From positions 32,001 to 96,000 of the IMG/VR virus record IMGVR_UViG_3300035497_000279: 64,000 bases of DNA. One strand, given 5' to 3'. The translations under genes were made by a program, and so were the position numbers. Below the pieces are notes generated by a model. The model was given only the letters and a program-made list of their open reading frames with translations. It made no database searches and was not told the origin of the DNA. Positions 13,694-48,597 of this stretch are shown here, in pieces (within the stretch, counting starts at the first letter, position 1; every line of letters starts with the position of its first letter). Source of the stretch: a virus (taxonomy: Duplodnaviria > Caudoviricetes).

Positions 13694-13709
13694 ATATCTA
13701 AATACTAAC

Positions 13710-13735
13710 AAGGATAGTGTATATGCACTATCCTT
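13710..13735 (+). terminator. intrinsic terminator
   Basis: AAGGATAGTG..CACTATCCTT plus T tract. Confidence 0.75.
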
Positions 13736-13759
13736 ACTTGTTTTTTGTTTATTTTTAAT

Positions 13760-13783
13760 TATATATTATATATGTAGTAGTAG
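13760..13783 (+). promoter_or_regulatory. early-type promoter with GTAGTAG leader
   Basis: TATATATTATA followed by GTAGTAGTAG. Confidence 0.65.
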
Positions 13784-13814
13784 CAAATAATATTCAATAT
13801 AAGGAGGGAAAGAT

Positions 13815-14132
13815 ATGAAGATATTAAACTATACGCCACACGAAATTAACTTGATTAAAGAAAACGGGTACAGCATTTCAATACCATCAACAGGTATAGC
13901 TCGTGTATCAAGTACTGAAAAGGTAGTTTCTACCTTGGATGGTATTACAGAAACAGAAACAGTATACGGTGAGGTAGAAGGTCTTCCTGCTCCGGCAGAT
14001 GATACTATTATCATCGTATCCCGCCTTGTATTATCAAGGTGCCCTGATAGATCTGACTTTCGGGCTCCAGGTTTACAGGTACGTGATGATGAAGGCAGAG
14101 TAATTGGTTGCAAGTCCCTGGCTCGCAATTAA
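13815..14132 (+). CDS. Crn4-like cyclic oligoadenylate ring nuclease (putative anti-type III CRISPR)
   Basis: NYTPH...IPS.G.ARV...V.GLP.P...IIVS..V...R.D..P...VRD..GRVIGC..L pattern, recalled as the Crn4 family signature. Confidence 0.6.
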   Translation: MKILNYTPHEINLIKENGYSISIPSTGIARVSSTEKVVSTLDGITETETVYGEVEGLPAPADDTIIIVSRLVLSRCPDRSDFRAPGLQVRDDEGRVIGCKSLARN

Positions 14133-14140
14133 TTACAATA

Positions 14141-14169
14141 AAGGGCTCGCTTCGGCGGGCTTCTTTTTT
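14141..14169 (+). terminator. intrinsic terminator
   Basis: GGGCTCGC-TTCG-GCGGGCTT plus T tract. Confidence 0.8.
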
Positions 14170-14278
14170 GTCTATTATCTACGTTCCTGAGGTTGAAATT
14201 GTAAAAGTTGTAAATTTCAGCTATATAATATAATGATGTAAAAGTAGTAGTAATACATATTTTAAGGAGGAAATTCTT

Positions 14279-14698
14279 ATGAGAAAAGAAGTTAAACGCA
14301 TTTATCAAACAGCACAGAAGTACATGACACATGAGAACAAAAAAATGAGGAGAACATCCTCGAAGCCAGAATACCCACTGGTTGACGACATGCTGAACGG
14401 GGCTAGACATCTTAGTTATTCAACAGACGGCATGGAGTTAAACATCATCGTCGGTGAAAAATACTGTATGGTATATGTATCCGATGATGAAAGCATTGAA
14501 TCACTGAAGCTCACAGCGTACGAGTACAAACTCGTAAAAGAGCACATCAGGAGGCAGAGGGATGATGCAATCATGCGGCTCCAGCAGATGAGAGATGACT
14601 ATAAAATGAGCAAAATGATCGCATTGATTAACGAGCAGATTGATAAAAGGGAGGCTGAGAAGTATTGCAGGAATCTGCCGGCACTTAAGAAAAACTAG
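14279..14698 (+). CDS. hypothetical early protein
   Basis: Early motif 14222, AAGGAGG RBS, terminator 14705-14723. Confidence 0.8.
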   Translation: MRKEVKRIYQTAQKYMTHENKKMRRTSSKPEYPLVDDMLNGARHLSYSTDGMELNIIVGEKYCMVYVSDDESIESLKLTAYEYKLVKEHIRRQRDDAIMRLQQMRDDYKMSKMIALINEQIDKREAEKYCRNLPALKKN

Positions 14699-14858
14699 CA
14701 ACATGGGGGTCTCTTGACCCCCTAATATTTTTTATTAATTTCGTTTATTTTTTATTACTTTATTCTATGATCCAATTGGGCGATAATAATAAAAATTAAT
14801 TGTATAATATTATTGTGTAGTAGTATAAAAATATAATATATCTAAAGGAGGGAAGATT

Positions 14859-15410
14859 ATGAATAATACTACAGCTGAGGTATTGATTAAAGGTATCGAG
14901 AACGGCACTATTAAATTAATAAAGTTCGCAAACACGGTATACGAGAGAATATCTGAATACGTATGGATGTACAGAAAACTTGACGATGGTAAGTCTGAAG
15001 GTGTAATGCTAAGTGATTATATTATCAAAAATATAAAGATATTTAACGAGAATGATTTTAAATTTGTGAATTTTTATCAGTTTACGATGAATGACATAAT
15101 GTGCACTCCAAACAGAATCATCTCACCAGAAATTGCAGAGATGATGGATAGTATTGTAATGCATCGTGATAATGTTGATTCAGTATCTGTAGGTGATGGC
15201 GAGTCAGTGTTTACATGGTATAACGTTGAAGGTGGTGATCACTGGATTGAGAGGGAACAGCATTTCGTAGATGGTGATGAGGTAAGTTGTAAAAGACGAA
15301 CCGTTGATTCTGTTAGCATTATTGAAACTATCTATAGGATTGAATATGCTAAAAAGGAAATGCAAGAAAAATTAAACATGTTTGAGAATTCAATAGCATA
15401 CTCCTCTTGA
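14859..15410 (+). CDS. hypothetical early protein, paralog of 15545
   Basis: MNNTTAE..KGIE.GTIK..YERISEY.W shared; duplicated promoter and terminator. Confidence 0.85.
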   Translation: MNNTTAEVLIKGIENGTIKLIKFANTVYERISEYVWMYRKLDDGKSEGVMLSDYIIKNIKIFNENDFKFVNFYQFTMNDIMCTPNRIISPEIAEMMDSIVMHRDNVDSVSVGDGESVFTWYNVEGGDHWIEREQHFVDGDEVSCKRRTVDSVSIIETIYRIEYAKKEMQEKLNMFENSIAYSS

Positions 15411-15417
15411 ATATGTT

Positions 15418-15451
15418 TATGGCTAGGGTTATTCCCTGGCCATATTTTTTT
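15418..15451 (+). terminator. intrinsic terminator (identical copy at ~16107-16140)
   Basis: ATGGCTAGGG-ttatt-CCCTGGCCAT plus T tract. Confidence 0.8.
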
Positions 15452-15544
15452 GTTATATTATAATGCAAGAGTAATAGTATAAAAAATTAATTGCATAATA
15501 TTATTGTGTAGTAGTATAAAAATATAATCAAGGAGGGAAATATT

Positions 15545-16102
15545 ATGAATAATACTACAGCAGAAATACTTGTAAAAGGCATTGAGGACGGAACTATTAA
15601 AATTATAACATGCGGTAATATGACATACGAGAGAATATCTGAATACGCATGGATATATAACAGGAATGATGTAGATGGTAACATCGAGGGGGTAATATTC
15701 CGCAACGACCTGATTGACAGAGTAAAAACAATTGAAGATGATGATCCTGATGTATATTTTTATCGGTTTACCATGAATGACATACTATGCGCGTCTGACA
15801 GAATCATATCTCCAAAGAAGGCGGAGATTTTTGATGCGGCAATAATGCATCATGATCGTTTGGATTGTATATACGGAGGAGATGGTAGAGTAAACTACAC
15901 ATGGCATAGTGTAGACGATGGCACAGATCATTGGCTTGAGATTAGGGAGGAATATTATAACAATAAAAGAAAGCCAATTACAGATCTCACAGTAACTACA
16001 CTTCATCTCGTGGAAACAATGGTGAGGATGGAGTATTCGAAAAGGGAGTTGGAAGAAAGATTAAACCTGTTCGAGTCAGGAAGCATACGTTATTCTGAAT
16101 AA
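15545..16102 (+). CDS. hypothetical early protein, paralog of 14859
   Basis: Clear end-to-end similarity with 14859. Confidence 0.85.
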   Translation: MNNTTAEILVKGIEDGTIKIITCGNMTYERISEYAWIYNRNDVDGNIEGVIFRNDLIDRVKTIEDDDPDVYFYRFTMNDILCASDRIISPKKAEIFDAAIMHHDRLDCIYGGDGRVNYTWHSVDDGTDHWLEIREEYYNNKRKPITDLTVTTLHLVETMVRMEYSKRELEERLNLFESGSIRYSE

Positions 16103-16249
16103 TATTTATGGCTAGGGTTATTCCCTGGCCATATTTTTTTGCTATATTCTATGATTCCGAATGGTATTAGTCTGTAAAACCTATTAATTTCAGCTATATA
16201 ATATAATGGTGTAAAAGTAGTAGTAATAATATCCTAAGGAGGGAAAACT

Positions 16250-16525
16250 ATGTTAAACGAAAAAATTATGAGGTACTATAATAATGTTAGAGGAGTCATT
16301 GCAGACGCAGTAGCTAAAATAACAAAAAATGATTGGAAGGAGCTAAGTAAATTATTTGCATCATCGTCAACATATAGCACATACGATTCTGATAGATTAA
16401 TACAACAGATCGTATACTTTTGCAAAATTTATTTATATGATCTGACGTCAGGAGCGGTTCCGGAGTTTAATGATTTCGAGTTAAATTTTATGGTTAGGAT
16501 GTTTATATTGGAACATCTCGACTAG
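16250..16525 (+). CDS. hypothetical early protein
   Basis: Promoter/leader nearly identical to that of 14279; RBS; terminator ~16532-16562. Confidence 0.8.
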   Translation: MLNEKIMRYYNNVRGVIADAVAKITKNDWKELSKLFASSSTYSTYDSDRLIQQIVYFCKIYLYDLTSGAVPEFNDFELNFMVRMFILEHLD

Positions 16526-16662
16526 AAAAATGAGGGTAGCAAAAGCTATCCTTATTTTTTTCACTAATATTATTTTTTATCTTATATACTCTAATCTACA
16601 ATTAAGTATACTTTTAATTATATATTATATATAAGTATAAATACAAAAGAAAGGAGTAAAAA

Positions 16663-17592
16663 ATGGGGGAAACAAAAGATGAAACCATTGAGAGATGGTC
16701 AACTAAAAACATTAGCGATGAGAAAATTAAAAGCATTACAGATAAATTAAAATCTGGAATGAAAAAAGTTGATATCGCTGAATCTGTTGGTATATCATAT
16801 GTAACAGTTTATAGATACGCTAAAAAGTTAGGTTATGTTAAATGTAGGGGAGATAAAGAGGTAACCGAACCACTAAAACAAACAAAAAATTTAACAGAAT
16901 CTAAACCATTAGAAGAACACAATAACAGAGTACTACTAACTACAAAGAGGGAGACTTTAGAATGTGCGCTAATAAAAGATCGCCATACCGGAATTCCCAC
17001 AGATAAGTATATATTTAGTAGTATTAACCAACAAATAATGTTTAATTACAAACGTCTTGATGACATTGTTAAAAAATTCATAATTTCAAATATGGAATTT
17101 GTTAGTAATGAATCTGGAATAATGGTTGGGAGTAAGGACTTGGTTGTATATGTTACTGGGTTGGCATGTACCCAAGCATCAGTATTGAAAGTATGCCAAG
17201 AACTCAGAGTTAATTTAACTCTAATGCATTGGAACAAGCGTAGTAAACAATACTTTCCACAAGTAATTTGGAAAGATTTTGGGAGGCATAATATTAGAAG
17301 CATATTCCCGCTTACAGATAATATATGTATGCGTTGTACATATAAAGATCTTGAAGCCAATGAGTTCTATTATACAAGTGTAGTAGATGATGGTTATAAA
17401 GACAACATAATGAGAATGTATGAAAGCATAACGATCTGTAAGTCCGAAGAAGATATGTGGAATCAATATGGAGCCCAGTTCAGTGAATTAATGCCTGACA
17501 AAAATGCAAAGAAAATAATACGTGCTTTTAAAGCAAAACTCAAATCTGATGGTATGAGCAAACAGTGTTTATACCAAATGTCTACTTATTAA
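16663..17592 (+). CDS. N-terminal helix-turn-helix protein fused to an RH...YVTGL...LTL.H domain (possibly CARF/SAVED-like)
   Basis: GMKKVDIAESVGISYVTVYRY is a clear HTH; fold of second domain (DRHTGIP..YIF..VVYVTGL..LTLMHW..YFPQ) is inferred. Confidence 0.55.
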   Translation: MGETKDETIERWSTKNISDEKIKSITDKLKSGMKKVDIAESVGISYVTVYRYAKKLGYVKCRGDKEVTEPLKQTKNLTESKPLEEHNNRVLLTTKRETLECALIKDRHTGIPTDKYIFSSINQQIMFNYKRLDDIVKKFIISNMEFVSNESGIMVGSKDLVVYVTGLACTQASVLKVCQELRVNLTLMHWNKRSKQYFPQVIWKDFGRHNIRSIFPLTDNICMRCTYKDLEANEFYYTSVVDDGYKDNIMRMYESITICKSEEDMWNQYGAQFSELMPDKNAKKIIRAFKAKLKSDGMSKQCLYQMSTY

Positions 17593-17609
17593 TAATAACA
17601 AGTCTATAT

Positions 17610-17633
17610 GCGGTGAGGTATAATCCTCACCGC
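17610..17633 (+). terminator. intrinsic terminator
   Basis: GCGGTGAGG-tataat-CCTCACCGC. Confidence 0.75.
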
Positions 17634-17747
17634 TATTTCTATTCGTTTTTATTTTTTGTCTATAATTAAATTCTAATAGAATTGTATACTATATAGGTAT
17701 ATAAGTAGTACGTATTATAAAACTATATCTTAAGGAGGGAACCAAAG

Positions 17748-18251
17748 ATGGAAACAAAACAAAAATTTTTCAATTTAATCATTGCCAATGGTCCAATATT
17801 TAGTGATAATGACATTTTTAAATTGACCAGAACCAAAGGAGACTCAGATATTGAGTACATTTATGATGTACCAATGAAGGAATCAAATGGACTATACTTA
17901 TACTATTCAAGAACTAATGGTAAATCATTATTTGAGAATGAATCACTTAAGAAATTGGATAGTGCTTTTGTACTTATTTCAAATGAGCTGGATTATAGTT
18001 ATATAGACGTGAATGTAAAGACAGGCTTTGAATATATTCCTTTTGAATCAATTGTTAATTCAATCAGTAAATGGGAAAAGTATCCAGAAGCAAAAAAAGA
18101 CTTTTATAGTATTCTCGATAAGATAACTGATTTGTTTGAAGTAAATAAGTTTTCTGATTCTGATAAGAATTTCATATCAGGAGCTTATATTACTGACATG
18201 AATATCGTAAGAGAGTATGAAAGATTATGCTGGATTGCTGGTGCTGATTGA
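17748..18251 (+). CDS. hypothetical early protein
   Basis: Early motif 17683, AAGGAGG RBS, terminator 18259-18284. Confidence 0.8.
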   Translation: METKQKFFNLIIANGPIFSDNDIFKLTRTKGDSDIEYIYDVPMKESNGLYLYYSRTNGKSLFENESLKKLDSAFVLISNELDYSYIDVNVKTGFEYIPFESIVNSISKWEKYPEAKKDFYSILDKITDLFEVNKFSDSDKNFISGAYITDMNIVREYERLCWIAGAD

Positions 18252-21367: not shown

Positions 21368-22372
21368 ATGCAAAAAACCAGATGTAGAAATGACGCGTTA
21401 AAAGATTCAATTGAACTTTTAGACGAGATCAAATGTGTACTTCAGGAAGTTATAGAAGGTGAGAATCTTACTGATTCTTGTAGAAATCATAATCTTGATT
21501 ACATGAGAATACGTAGATTTATTATGGGGACTAATAGATTTTACGTAGATAATAGATTCACGATAGATACATGTGATATAGATTTTCCTGTAGAGGATGG
21601 TTATCACAGGCTCTATAGAAAGATATTCAGTTTACCGGCAAAACAGAGAATTAATTTGCCGAAAGATTTGAGAGAATCTATTGATTTTATCATAGACACA
21701 CAGTTAACCCCAATACAGGCAGATATTTTAACTAATCGTTTTGCTGTTCATGGTGTAGAGGAAGCTAAAACCATGAAGTACTTAGCCTATAAACATAATA
21801 TAAGAGAATCTAGAGTAAGAGATATTGAGATTAAAGCTCTTAGGATTTGTCGTGCAGGTAGTAATAGCAGTATTATAAGAGATGGTATGTCAAAACATTT
21901 GGAAGATGTTTCAAATAAGAAATTCATAGCTGCTAGAAAGAAGGCTGGCGAAGAGCAGAGAGCTGCCGCTGAGCGTAAATCTATTGAGGAGTTTTATGAG
22001 TCATATCTAAATGGATTATCAAATTCCGAAAAAGAAGTATGGGATGCTATAATGCATAATCTTAATTCTCGCAGAATATATGATTTAGATAGAGATGTAT
22101 TATCATCAAGAGCTTTTAATGCATTAAAAGCAATACCGAGCCAGTATGATGATCCTGATCACTATACACAGTTTCCGTATGATACTCATTCATATATAAC
22201 TCTTGGTGAGCTTATATTATTAACTGACGATAAGATATTATCTTTACATTCTTGTGGTAAAGCAACCACAAAAGAAATTGGAGAGGCTATCGAATCAATC
22301 ATACATGAATATGGTATTCCTTACACAAGAGAAGAATTCTTAGATGCTTATAAGAAATATTGTGAAGGCTAG
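21368..22372 (+). CDS. sigma-70 region 4 HTH + RNA polymerase alpha-CTD-like fusion protein
   Basis: LTPIQADIL..RF...KT...LA...NIRESRVRDIEIKALR (sigma4); LSSRAFNALK..TLGEL...T...IL.L..CGK....EI (alpha-CTD). Confidence 0.75.
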   Translation: MQKTRCRNDALKDSIELLDEIKCVLQEVIEGENLTDSCRNHNLDYMRIRRFIMGTNRFYVDNRFTIDTCDIDFPVEDGYHRLYRKIFSLPAKQRINLPKDLRESIDFIIDTQLTPIQADILTNRFAVHGVEEAKTMKYLAYKHNIRESRVRDIEIKALRICRAGSNSSIIRDGMSKHLEDVSNKKFIAARKKAGEEQRAAAERKSIEEFYESYLNGLSNSEKEVWDAIMHNLNSRRIYDLDRDVLSSRAFNALKAIPSQYDDPDHYTQFPYDTHSYITLGELILLTDDKILSLHSCGKATTKEIGEAIESIIHEYGIPYTREEFLDAYKKYCEG

Positions 22373-25932: not shown

Positions 25933-27456
25933 ATGAATGATAATAAAATTCAAGCAATGATAGAATCGTTTAAATCATCCAATTTAACTGAATCACAGTC
26001 GGTATCAAAATATAAATTCCCAGGAATGTATTGTCCATACTTTACTCCTAATGAAGTTGCTTCTTATACAGGGTATTATTCAGATCATATAGATGAAGAA
26101 TGTGTTTCTTTATATGAGGAAGCTATCAATATAAATACACATCATACTCCAGATCATGCATTTCAAAAATCTTGGAATTCTAAGGTAGGGGAATTACATG
26201 ATAAACTTAAAAATACTGAAGATCAGGATGAAATAGATCAGATCAAACAAGACATGATTTCTTTAGGATGGAATCCAGAGATAGAATATAATACTGAGAA
26301 TCAGATTATGGCTAAAAAGAGATTTGAAAATATAATGAATGAGATGTATAATAGGGTATTTATTTCTAATATCACACCATTAGTTGAATCTTTTAATGAT
26401 GAATACATAGAGGAATCTACTTCATCTAAAAAGAAATTATTCCCTGTTCATATAGTTTTAGTTAGAGGTTGTTCACCATTATCTAAACTAATTACTAGTG
26501 TGACTCCTGGAGAGTTTTCTCATTCTGCTATATCTTTAGATAATAAACTTGAAAAGTTATATAGCTATAACTTTGATAATAAGTTTAATTTTGGTGGTGG
26601 ATTCTCATTAGAATCTATTAAAGAATATCCTAAAGAAAATAGATTAGCTGTATATACTGTATTTGTTACAGAGAATGCTTATAAGAAGATTTCAGATAAT
26701 ATTCAATATCTTCTTGGAGATATTAAAAATACAACGTATTCTATTGTAAATCTTATTACGTTTCCTATAAAGAATATTAATATAAATATGGGAGAAAATA
26801 TGATTTGCTCTCAATTTGTAGATTCTATTCTTAAGTTAGCAAATACAGATTTTACTAAAAAAGATTCATCTAAAGTTTCACCTAACGAATTGAATTTTGC
26901 TTTAAGTAATAATCCTAAAGCTTATAAGATATTTGATGGTGTTGTAAAAGACTTTGATGGGAATAAAACAAATAAGTTTATTAACAAGATTTCAAAAACA
27001 GCTACCTCAGCTAACGAATCATGTAAGTATGAGAATGCTATATTTGAAGCTCGCAAAATTCCTGTAGAAGTGAGTTCAGAGGGTGATGTACTACTTACAA
27101 ATCCATTTCCTGACTATAGTGAAGAATATTTTTCATCTCATAAGTTATTATTAAATTATGAGAAGACTGGTAATATTGATGGTATGAAATATGAATTGGC
27201 TAGACTTTATTATATGAATTATACATTAGAGAAGAAGCTATATCATAATAAACTTCTACCGAAGAAAAATGAGTATATAAAGACAAGAGCTAGAATACTT
27301 AATGATTTTAATAAATATCTTAAATATGTATTAGATAAAGATAAGAAGTTTAACTTTGGTGAATATTATGAGCAATCGCCTTTCTATGCTAATACAATCG
27401 AAGTTAAAGGATCCACTATAGGACAAGTAAAAGATATAATTAAGTATATATTATAA
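25933..27456 (+). CDS. multi-domain protein with permuted papain-like (YiiX/C92-type) amidase domain
   Basis: LSKLI..VT..EFSHSAISLD...YS...MICSQFVDSIL (His before Cys). Confidence 0.7.
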   Translation: MNDNKIQAMIESFKSSNLTESQSVSKYKFPGMYCPYFTPNEVASYTGYYSDHIDEECVSLYEEAININTHHTPDHAFQKSWNSKVGELHDKLKNTEDQDEIDQIKQDMISLGWNPEIEYNTENQIMAKKRFENIMNEMYNRVFISNITPLVESFNDEYIEESTSSKKKLFPVHIVLVRGCSPLSKLITSVTPGEFSHSAISLDNKLEKLYSYNFDNKFNFGGGFSLESIKEYPKENRLAVYTVFVTENAYKKISDNIQYLLGDIKNTTYSIVNLITFPIKNININMGENMICSQFVDSILKLANTDFTKKDSSKVSPNELNFALSNNPKAYKIFDGVVKDFDGNKTNKFINKISKTATSANESCKYENAIFEARKIPVEVSSEGDVLLTNPFPDYSEEYFSSHKLLLNYEKTGNIDGMKYELARLYYMNYTLEKKLYHNKLLPKKNEYIKTRARILNDFNKYLKYVLDKDKKFNFGEYYEQSPFYANTIEVKGSTIGQVKDIIKYIL

Positions 27457-27548
27457 AAACGAACAAGAATCCCATACTCTTTCGAGTATGGGACCATCTT
27501 GCGGAGGACTTTTACATGAAAAAAGTAACAATTTTAACCATAACTATT
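27455..27548 (-). ncRNA. putative antisense small RNA (~93 nt) with its own late promoter and terminator
   Basis: Minus-strand AACA-N6-TAA at 27547-27559; hairpin CCCATACTC-GAAA-GAGTATGGG then T-rich tail on minus; body is anti-AUG/anti-SD (UUUUCAUGUAAAAGUCCUCC). Confidence 0.55.
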
Positions 27549-27614
27549 ACTTAAATGTTATCAAATAAAAACAGCATTATCATTTAAGTAATACAAGTCT
27601 AAGGAGGGAAACAA

Positions 27615-28547
27615 ATGATATTAACAGGTACAAAGTATTATAAGTACGATGAAGATCAACTTCAGGTATACCGTGTAGTTAATAATAAAGACGACAAGTA
27701 TACTCTGAAAGAATTATTTGGTAAAGGTAAAAGAATTGTAGTAGAAGAAGAGAAACTCAAATCTGTATATATAAAGTTAAACAATGATGCATTCTTAAAT
27801 ATGATGATTACTGCAAGCAATGGAGTAGCTAACGAAGATATTAAAGATGTATTTGCTTGTGTTAATAAAGTCGTAGATATGCAGTTAGATAAATTAGTAC
27901 CGTGCTTGATAGTAAGGCAAAATTGTATGTCTCAATCTAAGAATGCATTTAATACTGGGATAGAAACATACGTTGGGGATTGTTTTACCAGTAAGAATAT
28001 TCAATTAGATATGAGTATGGAAGAGGTAATGGAGTATGATGAGATTAGTTATACTTATTCTGTAGCATTGTATATTGATGATACGATTAATGATATATTT
28101 GATTCTATACCACCACATATACTGGAAGAATTTAATAAAGCATTAAAAGAAATCAAATCATCAAATAAAAGTTCTTTAGTTAAAGGATATTCTCTTACAT
28201 TACAAGATTTATTTAATGACAATAACTTTATGTATAATTATAGAGATATCTTTGGCGTTGTTCAATTAGATTTCCCTATATATTTAGGCAAGAGTTCATA
28301 TAATGAAGATGGGGATATTGTATTAAATGAAAAGCAGCATAAGAAGTTAGAAGATCGTATGTATCAATATATCAATATTGTTGCAGTTCTTAAATATGAT
28401 AGAGATATAGATGTATCTAAAATTGTAAAATATGCACATATAGTTGTATCTGACAGTAATGGAGATATATATCTTATTGCTTATCAAAAGATAGGTGATT
28501 ATAAAATTGATGATGATGTATTAAATGCATTCAATTTAGTTAAATAA
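27615..28547 (+). CDS. hypothetical phage protein
   Basis: 310-aa ORF, AAGGAGG RBS. Confidence 0.8.
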   Translation: MILTGTKYYKYDEDQLQVYRVVNNKDDKYTLKELFGKGKRIVVEEEKLKSVYIKLNNDAFLNMMITASNGVANEDIKDVFACVNKVVDMQLDKLVPCLIVRQNCMSQSKNAFNTGIETYVGDCFTSKNIQLDMSMEEVMEYDEISYTYSVALYIDDTINDIFDSIPPHILEEFNKALKEIKSSNKSSLVKGYSLTLQDLFNDNNFMYNYRDIFGVVQLDFPIYLGKSSYNEDGDIVLNEKQHKKLEDRMYQYINIVAVLKYDRDIDVSKIVKYAHIVVSDSNGDIYLIAYQKIGDYKIDDDVLNAFNLVK

Positions 28548-34362: not shown

Positions 34363-34402
34363 GCCCATCACGTTTAATACTATACATGCCTTTATTTCTC
34401 TT

Positions 34403-34430
34403 TACTCCCATGGTTAACGCCATGGGAGTA
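34403..34430 (+). terminator. intrinsic terminator
   Basis: TACTCCCATGG-N6-CCATGGGAGTA. Confidence 0.75.
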
Positions 34431-45807: not shown

Positions 45808-45847
45808 ATATTACGATTTTCTTGGAGTGGTCAAAATCGACCACTCC

Positions 45848-48543: not shown

Positions 48544-48597
48544 CAATCTTTTTATATATAAGGAACAGACCCGCTCTTACAATATTGTTAGTTAATT

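Follow-up and report, generated by a model that had tools for sequence, protein, structure and literature searches.

In Firmicutes, small RNAs with a C/U-rich seed, such as the RsaE/RoxS-type RNAs and the csRNAs, occlude Shine-Dalgarno (SD) sequences. These RNAs carry a single-stranded CU-rich motif that lies beside an intrinsic terminator and is complementary to GGAGG, and the same arrangement is predicted for the phage RNA described in this study. However, the phage RNA has no sequence or Rfam relation to them, it is phage-encoded, and its motif is present once instead of in repeated C-rich loops.

Among phages, the OOP RNA of lambda (pO-oop-tO) is comparable in layout. Both OOP and the RNA predicted here are short, have their own promoter and hairpin terminator, and run toward the 3′ end of the upstream gene, antisense to its transcript. 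For OOP, cleavage of the hybrid by RNase III has been proposed (PMC5869508). In OOP, however, the overlap extends over 52 bases of cII coding sequence, whereas the RNA considered here would end at a stop codon and cover only the 3′ untranslated or read-through part of the opposing transcript. In addition, it would be a late RNA of a lytic jumbo phage with a conserved anti-SD stretch. Transcript mapping in phiKZ, PAK_P3 and further Pseudomonas phages has likewise yielded ORF-less promoter-to-terminator RNAs and antisense RNAs (PMC10914365, PMC8244752). Like the present RNA, these are small, belong to jumbo or virulent phages, are often late, and have a start site and a terminator. They are defined by RNA data and no anti-SD core has been described for them, whereas the present RNA is defined only by its sequence and conservation. 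In phiKZ, the regulatory RNAs amount to a handful of candidates, none with a function (PMC8244752, PMC10914365), and our literature search returned nothing on regulatory RNAs in the AR9 group.

Two further systems bear on the interpretation of the locus. The late promoters of Bacillus phage AR9, which are used by its non-virion RNA polymerase, have the consensus A(−11)ACA-6N-T-A/G(+1) (PMC7598289, PMC9209446). In Bacillus thuringiensis cry3A, the STAB-SD element is found around position −129, where it blocks RNase J1 (PMC4113751). On its plus strand, our locus resembles the latter in having an orphan GGAGG about 110–130 nt before a start codon and no conserved ORF. However, STAB-SD acts near the 5′ end of the sense RNA, whereas the GGAGG of our locus has no preceding plus-strand promoter and the strand-specific features favor the minus strand.

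Results

The window, that is, the whole stretch of 64,000 nucleotides that was analyzed, is part of a 236-kb phage genome (G000), which is a distant relative of AR9, is classed as AR9/PBS1/BpSp-like, and is only about 75% complete. Two sets of RNA polymerase beta and beta′ homologues are encoded in it; two profile matches to Rpb2_6 (beta) and one to Rpb1_2 (beta′) lie above the cut-off, and a second Rpb1_2 match is weak (17 bits, below the cut-off). The locus lies between a 507-aa gene and a 310-aa gene. The 310-aa gene has no nucleotide or protein match in isolated phages, and the relatives are metagenome sequences only. Twelve of them carry the unit described below, and their 310-aa proteins show 40–56% identity.

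The 236 kb contain 80 copies of the late promoter motif of this phage, ACA-N6-TAA, for which ACAT-N5-TAA was used as the search pattern. Intergenic DNA, which makes up 9.7% of the genome, holds 47 of these copies, an enrichment of approximately 6-fold, and 44 of the 47 are oriented at gene starts, including those of a virion gene at 45827 and of a 3771-aa gene. Only three stringent intergenic copies have no gene downstream, and one of these is the minus-strand sequence AACATTTAAGTA, which reads from 27559 down to 27548 in the form AACA(−11 to −8)-N6-T(−1)-A(+1). A sequence-only reading of the locus had placed a minus-strand late promoter at 27547–27559; the promoter is present and of the AR9 consensus type, and its coordinates are corrected here to 27548–27559. 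By analogy with the AR9 late consensus, transcription would start at the A at 27548. The conserved positions and their spacing are identical to those of the AR9 late promoters, and both phages have multisubunit RNA polymerases; unlike the AR9 promoters, the orphan copy has no gene to drive and its start is a predicted one. Approximately three to four stray intergenic matches would be expected by chance against the three orphans observed, and a lone orphan copy is within chance if conservation is ignored. The minus-strand copy scores 12.0 bits with the position weight matrix (PWM), which is the 86th percentile of 71 gene-facing sites, and the 95th percentile of the matches in coding DNA is 8.9. 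Because of this score and the conservation in relatives, we consider the minus-strand promoter to lie above chance.

The 310-aa gene has its own late promoter on the plus strand at 27579–27590, an ATCA-N6-T-A variant (PWM score 9.5 bits, 56th percentile) with a predicted start at 27590, which would give a 25-nt leader containing AAGGAGG. The sequence CCATTTAARTAA at this promoter is conserved among the near relatives. The two back-to-back promoter copies form the 13-bp inverted repeat that had been read from the sequence, which spans 27545–27593 with exact 13-nt arms at 27545–27557 and 27581–27593; the arms extend to 16 nt at 94% complementarity (27545–27560 and 27578–27593). Because the repeat is less perfect in the relatives, we regard it as a by-product of the two promoters rather than as a separate element. 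The 13-mer was also considered as a recurrent motif and rejected, with only two copies in the window and matches with two mismatches at chance level.

A predicted intrinsic terminator lies on the minus strand at 27468–27495. Its stems occupy 27470–27479 and 27484–27493, its loop reads TTTC on the plus strand and thus GAAA on the minus strand, and it is followed by the tail UUCUUGUUCGUUUUU to approximately 27455. The stem has 10 Watson-Crick pairs, and two outer G·U pairs that are possible on the minus strand only bring the total to 12. A terminator consensus scan of 27200–27800 returned this single site (27495 to 27468, minus strand) against a mean of 0.0 sites in shuffled sequences, which bears out the earlier description of a GAAA-loop hairpin whose T-rich tail is on the minus strand only. 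Within the same interval the scan gave no terminator signal on the plus strand, where the hairpin has no U tract, so that plus-strand read-through transcripts are plausible. Of the four-base terminator loops in the whole genome, three are sense-oriented GAAA, and the only TTTC is the one at 27468–27495.

The promoter and the terminator would delimit a minus-strand RNA of approximately 87–94 nt (27548 down to 27455). In its predicted fold (z = −5.0 versus shuffled sequences), there are two weak hairpins at the 5′ end, UCCUCCG is single-stranded, and the terminator hairpin is extended and has a U tail. At 27503–27518, the complement of GGAGG (27503–27507) and an anti-start CAU, the complement of the ATG at 27516–27518, lie eight bases apart, and in predicted folds the mean unpaired probability of the anti-SD stretch is 0.74, compared with 0.39 for the whole RNA. 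The predicted 3′ end coincides with the stop codon of the 507-aa gene (27454–27456) or falls immediately short of it. Unlike OOP, the predicted RNA does not reach into the coding 3′ end of the opposing gene; the U tract ends at 27454–27456, with an overlap of at most 2 bases. Rfam covariance models gave no match at the gathering score in the window, and an E-value scan of 27300–27750 gave only chance-level matches. There is no conserved ORF on the minus strand, and a 9-codon minus-strand frame is not conserved.

Read on the plus strand, the sequence that mirrors the RNA body contains a 12-codon frame, MKKVTILTITIT (27516–27554), behind GGAGG at 27503–27507. As the sequence-only reading had stated, an SD sequence and an ATG at 27516 are followed by a stop after 12 codons (27552–27554). 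The RNA body is also, as claimed, the exact complement of this SD-AUG region, but the same holds for any antisense RNA and does not constitute evidence for a target in trans. A type I toxin-antitoxin system was rejected; the sense frames of the different copies have 0–12 codons, are unrelated and are often hydrophilic, whereas a conserved hydrophobic peptide of approximately 20–60 aa would be needed.

Four parts of the unit are kept in 12 of the 12 relatives that have a long spacer: the minus-strand promoter, the hairpin, the mostly minus-sided U tail and the CU-rich anti-SD stretch. The minus-strand AACA-N6(7)-T-A/G is found exactly once per relative and at the same position in all 12, with the consensus positions at least 90% conserved, and its plus-strand counterpart is absent in 9 of the 11 relatives scanned on both strands. 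The N6 within the promoter and the RNA body drift between relatives, and the bodies have diverged too far to be aligned usefully. The hairpin stems show compensatory changes, and in 8 of the 12 the minus-strand loop is a GNRA. Moreover, the plus-side tail of the hairpin is U-poor in 8 of 11, and the U tail is minus-sided in most. Every relative has an SD complement of 5–9 nt, whose identity to the 16S tail extends over 9 nt at most; the promoter-terminator distance stays at 70–150 nt. In the relative L013, the unit remains behind the homologue of the upstream gene despite an extra gene inserted downstream; in L015, L016 and L024, no unit is present at the corresponding position. A second unit of like design, including the anti-SD stretch, occurs in G000 at 166232–166381 and is kept in three relatives.

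The plus-strand frames are not conserved. They measure 12 aa in L005, 9 aa in L013, 7 aa in L020 and L022, and 6 aa in L012 (with a TTG start), and are absent or of just 2 codons in L001, L004, L008, L011, L017 and L023. A start codon at a workable SD spacing occurs in 6 of 12 copies, which is roughly chance level, and 4 of these read ATGAAA. The suggestion that the MKKVTILT mirror image is meaningful finds no support in these data, in which the frame is not conserved, approximately half of the relatives have a start codon, and the peptides are unrelated.

The search for targets covered phage and bacterial genomes. A blastn-short search with the RNA against the phage's own 236 kb found no match longer than 15 nt, and the 15-nt match was sense-oriented. 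RNAduplex comparison with all start regions of G000 gave no outlier, the best z being −2.9 for the start region of a gene resembling that of RNA polymerase beta′. Across six whole phage genomes, the best duplex partners (z −2.9 to −4.1) are not orthologous, and the orthologues of the best target of each genome were not predicted as targets in the others. In 4–5 of the 6 genomes, cognate pairings were no better than non-cognate pairings. The exception is G004, whose RNA shows matches to the start of a phage gene at approximately 26 of 30 positions, with an energy of −39.5 for the best cognate pairing versus −35.0 or weaker for non-cognate pairings. In G003, a 147-aa gene has a start with which the G000 RNA pairs at −34.6; this pairing was rejected because neither the G000 orthologue of that gene nor the G003 RNA matches. 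The neighboring 310-aa gene was likewise rejected as a target; by eye, no more than about 6 bp can form between its start region and the RNA.

For hosts, the exact 21-mer GGAGGACTTTTACATGAAAAA was compared with 185,579 species genomes. It has seven exact matches, all of them true MKK gene starts, in bacteria of unrelated phyla, and the matches end at 21–25 nt. Because these matches are scattered and short, as expected for start regions of low-GC genomes, we read them as generic, and no host can be inferred from the scan. The check that had been proposed for this RNA, a short-word BLASTN or duplex search of target start regions, gave no conserved target in the phage genomes and no specific match in the 21-mer scan of species genomes, and neither of these searches found a target with co-varying complementarity. 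Since G000 is only approximately three-quarters complete, a target may sit in the missing part.

Discussion

We consider the spacer at 27457–27614 to be best explained as an independent late gene for a non-coding minus-strand RNA of approximately 90 nt with a base-pairing anti-SD core, and we assign this reading a probability of roughly 0.55. That the locus is a new phage small-RNA gene is probable, and a stand-alone late minus-strand transcription unit is the reading that best fits what is conserved. The parts of the unit, the strand asymmetry and the conservation support this half of the sequence-only reading; its other half, a specific silencer of an MKK mRNA, found no support. In the scheme we favor, transcription by the phage's non-virion RNA polymerase would begin near 27548, at the AR9-type promoter AACATTTAAGT-A, and would end at the hairpin with the GAAA loop and its U tract, directly beside the stop codon of the 507-aa gene. 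The exposed 5′-CAU-N8-UCCUCCG-3′, which immediately precedes the terminator and is complementary to a ribosome-binding site, would be the functional core. From this complementarity we infer that the RNA may act by base pairing, in cis or in trans, and thereby occlude an SD region. The sole partner guaranteed by the sequence would be a transcript of the locus itself that reads through on the plus strand and carries an orphan GGAGG approximately 110 nt before the 310-aa gene. The RNA may also pair in trans with further strong ribosome-binding sites, in the phage or in the host; an anti-SD stretch of 5–7 nt has little specificity by itself.

Selection on the plus strand would account for the conserved GGAGG equally well. 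A GGAGG placed after a hairpin may be an orphan ribosome-docking site, either a stabilizer of the STAB-SD type or part of a short leader ORF, that protects or tunes the read-through mRNA of the downstream gene, with the minus-strand promoter match being incidental. A GGAGG-like run is present in all relatives approximately 70–160 nt before the next start, read-through is plausible past a hairpin with no U tract on the plus strand, a well-spaced start codon follows in half of the copies (four of them with ATGAAA), and the hosts evidently rely on strong SDs, with AAGGAGG dominating upstream regions. However, this proposal leaves the conserved minus-strand AACA..TA, the minus-strand U tail, the GNRA loop and the minus-only G·U pairs unexplained. 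Moreover, no plus-strand late promoter precedes the GGAGG (27360–27470 was read and the relatives were scanned), and the ORFs of 2–12 codons are unrelated and occur at a frequency near chance. We therefore regard such an element, taken as the whole explanation, as unlikely; it is nevertheless compatible with the small-RNA gene because an antisense RNA could mask the GGAGG site. A unit that is transcribed but whose RNA has no function of its own is somewhat easier to accept, although still rather unlikely. Its transcription might silence read-through from the 507-aa gene by collision, or the promoter might be the structural partner of the divergent one, and the terminator would shield the upstream gene from antisense transcription. 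The back-to-back promoters 17–23 bp apart with their inverted repeat, the terminator set exactly at the gene border, the fast divergence of the RNA body and the empty target searches in phage genomes are all in line with this view. Against it, the anti-SD stretch is kept in every copy while the remaining body drifts, the second unit (166232–166381) also has an anti-SD stretch, and the promoter-terminator distance is maintained at 70–150 nt rather than minimized.

The proposal that the RNA is a trans silencer tuned to one host or phage mRNA with the start region GGAGGACUUUUACAUGAAAAAAGUAACA..., encoding an exported protein of the MKK type, appears very improbable to us. It draws on the perfect SD-spacer-AUG-AAA-AAA that the complement forms in G000, on the extended match of the G004 RNA to a phage gene start, and on the fact that all seven exact bacterial 21-mer matches are true MKK gene starts. 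However, the phage's own 236 kb contains no match above 15 nt, the orthologues of the best matches are not targets in other genomes, the bacterial matches lie in unrelated phyla and end at 21–25 nt, and the part of the mirror image after the AUG is not conserved. With no conserved phage target and no specific host match, we do not retain the claim of a silencer aimed at a particular MKK-start mRNA.

Conclusions

A broader idea, which we put forward as speculation and consider improbable as it stands, is that AR9-like jumbo phages of low-GC hosts have a set of small RNAs that are late and polymerase-specific, with at least two of them in G000, and that display the anti-SD tail of the ribosome; in the present RNA, the initiator anticodon triplet accompanies this tail at the distance of a start codon. 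Transcribed in large amounts from replicated DNA, such RNAs would compete with the 30S subunit for ribosome-binding sites and reshape late translation. If this were true, the effect could be host shut-off or a ranking of phage messages by SD strength, and the set of small RNAs would be the translational counterpart of the phage's private transcription system.

Regulatory RNAs have hardly been explored in virulent jumbo phages, and this locus provides a precisely bounded candidate, with predicted ends, a six-base core, a dozen natural variants and a sister unit within the same genome. If the RNA is real, the phage's own polymerase would also drive non-coding genes, and translation initiation would be regulated late in infection. 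If the unit is merely an antisense insulator, it would show how AR9-like phages separate adjacent late transcription units.

Results

The plus-strand genes flanking the predicted small-RNA unit, a 507-aa gene (25933-27456) and a 310-aa gene (27615-28547), are separated by a spacer of 158 bp. On the plus strand, the stop codon of the 507-aa gene (27454-27456) is followed by an A-rich run, a perfect 10-bp hairpin (27470-27479 with 27484-27493, loop TTTC) and, 3′ of the hairpin, GCGGAGGAC, with GGAGG at 27503-27507, after which comes a frame of 12 codons (ATG at 27516, stop at 27552-27554). The left arm of an inverted repeat, TATTACTTAAATG (27545-27557), is separated by 23 AT-rich bases from its reverse complement, the right arm CATTTAAGTAATA (27581-27593), after which AAGGAGGG leads on the plus strand into the start of the 310-aa gene; a repeat search gave this repeat as 16 nt at 94%. 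A consensus scan of 27200-27800 found a single terminator-like site, on the minus strand, with 12 pairs followed by CTTGTTCGTT, and shuffled sequence contained a mean of 0.0 such sites. The two outer G.U pairs of this stem are A.C mismatches if read on the plus strand. The sequence-only reading had described these features accurately, except that it placed one repeat arm two bases off.

The virus record is 235.8 kb long with 31% G+C, and the window is its positions 32001-96000. According to a virion protein, the nearest isolates are the Bacillus phages BpSp, AR9 and PBS1 and the Yersinia phage phiR1-37 (25-31% identity). The RNAP beta domain Rpb2_6 has two genome matches, both above the Pfam cut-off, and the RNAP beta′ domain Rpb1_2 has one above the cut-off and one weak match (17 bits). 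Paired RNAP beta/beta′ sets are a hallmark of phages with one virion-borne polymerase and a second made afterwards. In addition, a 334-aa protein (window 21368-22372) matches sigma-70 region 4 and, weakly, the RNAP alpha-CTD.

The upstream regions of all genes were printed and inspected, and two motif classes were recognised. The first is AT-rich, TATAATATTAT...GTAGTAGTA, and lies ahead of clustered small genes. A (T)TGTATAATATTAT..TGTAGTAGTA class, probably the early (virion polymerase) promoters, occurs ahead of a row of small genes at window 13700-17750 and in other spacers, and TATATTATA was found in 21 spacers. The second, ACA-N6-TAA, lies 10-30 nt upstream of the Shine-Dalgarno sequence in many genes, including those for a virion protein (window 45827) and a 3771-aa product. 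Searched as ACAT-N5-TAA, it has 80 copies genome-wide; 47 are intergenic, though only 9.7% of the genome is intergenic, and 44 of these 47 face a gene start. Judged by its sequence, this motif is the published AR9 late consensus, A(-11)ACA-6N-T-A/G(+1), which is read by the non-virion polymerase (PMC7598289). The analogy to AR9 and the kind of genes preceded justify calling it a late promoter, with late timing a prediction.

The left repeat arm is AACATTTAAGTAATA when read on the minus strand and matches the consensus in full, with a predicted start at 27548; the right arm, on the plus strand, is a slightly weaker ATCA variant serving the 310-aa gene. In a position matrix from 71 gene-facing sites, with percentiles from leave-one-out scores, the minus orphan copy scores 12.0 bits (86th percentile of gene-facing sites) and the plus copy 9.5 bits (56th percentile), and the 95th percentile of relaxed matches within coding DNA is 8.9 bits. 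Approximately 3-4 stray intergenic matches are expected, and three orphans were seen genome-wide. One orphan site per genome is thus within expectation, and the case for the minus copy rests on conservation. Two AACA-N6-TA matches, at window 48578-48589 (minus strand) and G000:C1:156222-156233 of the whole record, lie directly past the stop codons of minus-strand genes and lead into shared convergent terminators (7.1 and 8.2 bits); they could represent 3′-end small RNAs or chance.

Homologous loci were gathered from viral and metagenome contigs with both flanking proteins as queries, and the 310-aa protein of these relatives is 40-56% identical to that of the window. Exactly one minus-strand AACA-N6-T-A/G is present at the corresponding place in all 12 distinct relatives with a long spacer behind the 507-aa homologue (with N7 in place of N6 in L001), and no plus-strand copy was found in nine of the 11 of these relatives scanned on that strand. 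The alignment shows at least 90% conservation of AACA, T(-1) and A(+1), with variation at the six free positions and in the transcript body. The hairpin is kept in every relative with differing stems (CCCATACTC, CCCCATAGTC, CCACATAGGC, CCCCATGGGA, CCCGCATGGG and others), which indicates compensatory change. Its minus-strand loop is GAAA in seven relatives and GUAA in one; three of the four-base terminator loops genome-wide read GAAA in the direction of the terminated gene, and TTTC is found at this site only. The minus-side tail ...GUUUUUAUAA is found in most relatives, and U residues are scarce in the plus-side tail of 8 of 11. The promoter, U tail, tetraloop and G.U pairs are strand-specific sequence signals, and all four indicate the minus strand. 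In L013, an extra gene is inserted ahead of the 310-aa homologue, and the unit remains with the upstream gene. The unit is absent at this position in three relatives (L015, L016 and L024). In L016, whose gene order differs, an unrelated 178-aa gene is followed at 720-910 by a similar hairpin, AAAAAGGAGCC and a TACA-N6-TAA on the minus strand, possibly a unit of this kind in a different location.

The predicted minus-strand RNA, ~90 nt long, would start at 27548 and reach the U run (27455-27459). In its predicted fold (MFE -27.9 kcal/mol), two weak hairpins form on the 5′ side, UCCUCCG is left unpaired and the terminator stem is extended; for the 146 nt of minus-strand spacer that contain this RNA (27455-27600), folding gave z = -5 versus shuffles. 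Every homologue has a Shine-Dalgarno complement (anti-SD) 8-28 nt ahead of the terminator; its match to the 16S tail is 7-9 bases in several (CUCCUUUCU in L004 and L022), and its mean unpaired probability in the predicted folds of the homologues is ~0.6 versus ~0.45 for whole RNAs. Orphan GGAGG-like runs are uncommon in the spacers of this genome (a handful comparable, counted by eye among 57 regular-expression hits in 143 spacers), so that keeping this one in every copy points to selection. An HU-like gene has CAUGCCUUUAUUUCUCUUU directly ahead of its terminator, in its 3′ untranslated end (window 34363-34430); the anti-start and CU-rich layout is the same, but here it belongs to a sense transcript and no minus promoter accompanies it.

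Outside the window, between two plus-strand genes (G000:C1:166232-166381), is a second unit built in this way: its minus promoter is AACACTATAGTAA, its body contains CCCCACCU, and it has a hairpin with a U tail on the minus side. It is kept in three relatives (G001, G002 and G003), and the box GCAUYCUGGUCAA is common to the copies of G000 and G001. Elsewhere outside the window, in this 31% G+C genome, a AACATGGGGGTAAGGGGGGACTGGGAACAGGG run stands behind a promoter-like match at G000:C1:183496-183660, followed by ~130 bp of palindromic sequence that is almost entirely A/T, between two convergent genes. Unusually long spacers at G000:C1 ~19.3, 26.6-26.9, 178.0, 209.5-209.9 and 222.3 kb hold repeated structured-looking elements (TCAACGACTATCCCC...; ...AAGGAAGTTCATAAGAGAACTGC...; ...CAGCAACAGGAGTAGGGC...GGTGAGAACCCTTTAAATCAAA) that appear intron- or mobile-element-like; a search of one locus gave no Rfam match.

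Discussion

Read on the plus strand, the conserved GGAGG could equally be a ribosome-binding site. A start codon follows it at 4-12 nt in the window (12 codons), L005 (12), L020 (7), L022 (7), L013 (9) and L012 (TTG, 6), and is missing or followed by only two codons in L001, L004, L008, L011, L017 and L023. Because the frames are patchy, the peptides are unrelated between relatives and a start codon at this distance is expected by chance in about one in three cases, we rejected a conserved mini-ORF. A fair rival is that GGAGG is an untranslated ribosome docking site of the STAB-SD type (PMC4113751) on the plus strand; however, this gives no account of the promoter, tail and loop on the minus strand, and ahead of GGAGG no late promoter was found on the plus strand. 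The docking and antisense readings can coexist, because an antisense RNA would mask that very site on read-through transcripts.

The sequence-only reading had further proposed a trans-acting silencer of an mRNA with an MKK-type start. The phage's own 236 kb contains no match to the mirror sequence longer than 15 nt, and the 15-nt match is in sense orientation. When each RNA body was compared by RNAduplex with all start regions of its own genome, in G000 and five whole relatives with crudely called genes, the best partners (z -2.9 to -4.1) were in unrelated genes, their orthologues were not predicted targets in the remaining genomes, and the cognate minimum energy was no better than the non-cognate minima in four to five of the six. 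Only the relative G004 stands out, with ~26 of 30 positions identical to the beginning of a 129-aa gene. The best partner in G000, the start region of an RNAP beta′-like gene (G000:C1:149304-150905), does not reach significance (z -2.9), nor is it conserved among relatives. Among 185,579 species genomes, an exact 21-mer has seven matches, all at genuine MKK gene starts (in Huintestinicola, Mucispirillum, Brevibacillus, Mesobacillus, Limiplasma and a Clostridia MAG); no match continues beyond 25 nt, a pattern typical of generic low-GC start regions and not of a specific host target. With no conserved phage target in the six genomes and only generic host matches, a silencer tuned to one MKK-start mRNA finds no support, and what stands of the earlier proposal is the stand-alone minus-strand late unit, whose features are present and conserved in relatives.

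These sequences are best read as a conserved late transcription unit on the minus strand that contains no gene, and we consider it likely that the small RNA exists. For the full statement, a conserved minus-strand late small-RNA gene including anti-SD pairing, our rough probability is 0.55. We infer both this pairing as the mechanism and the target of the RNA. The antisense RNA would mask GGAGG in cis on plus-strand read-through transcripts of its own locus, an action that would resemble that of lambda OOP (PMC5869508), or its anti-SD would pair generically with Shine-Dalgarno sequences; either mode fits better than an MKK-specific silencer.
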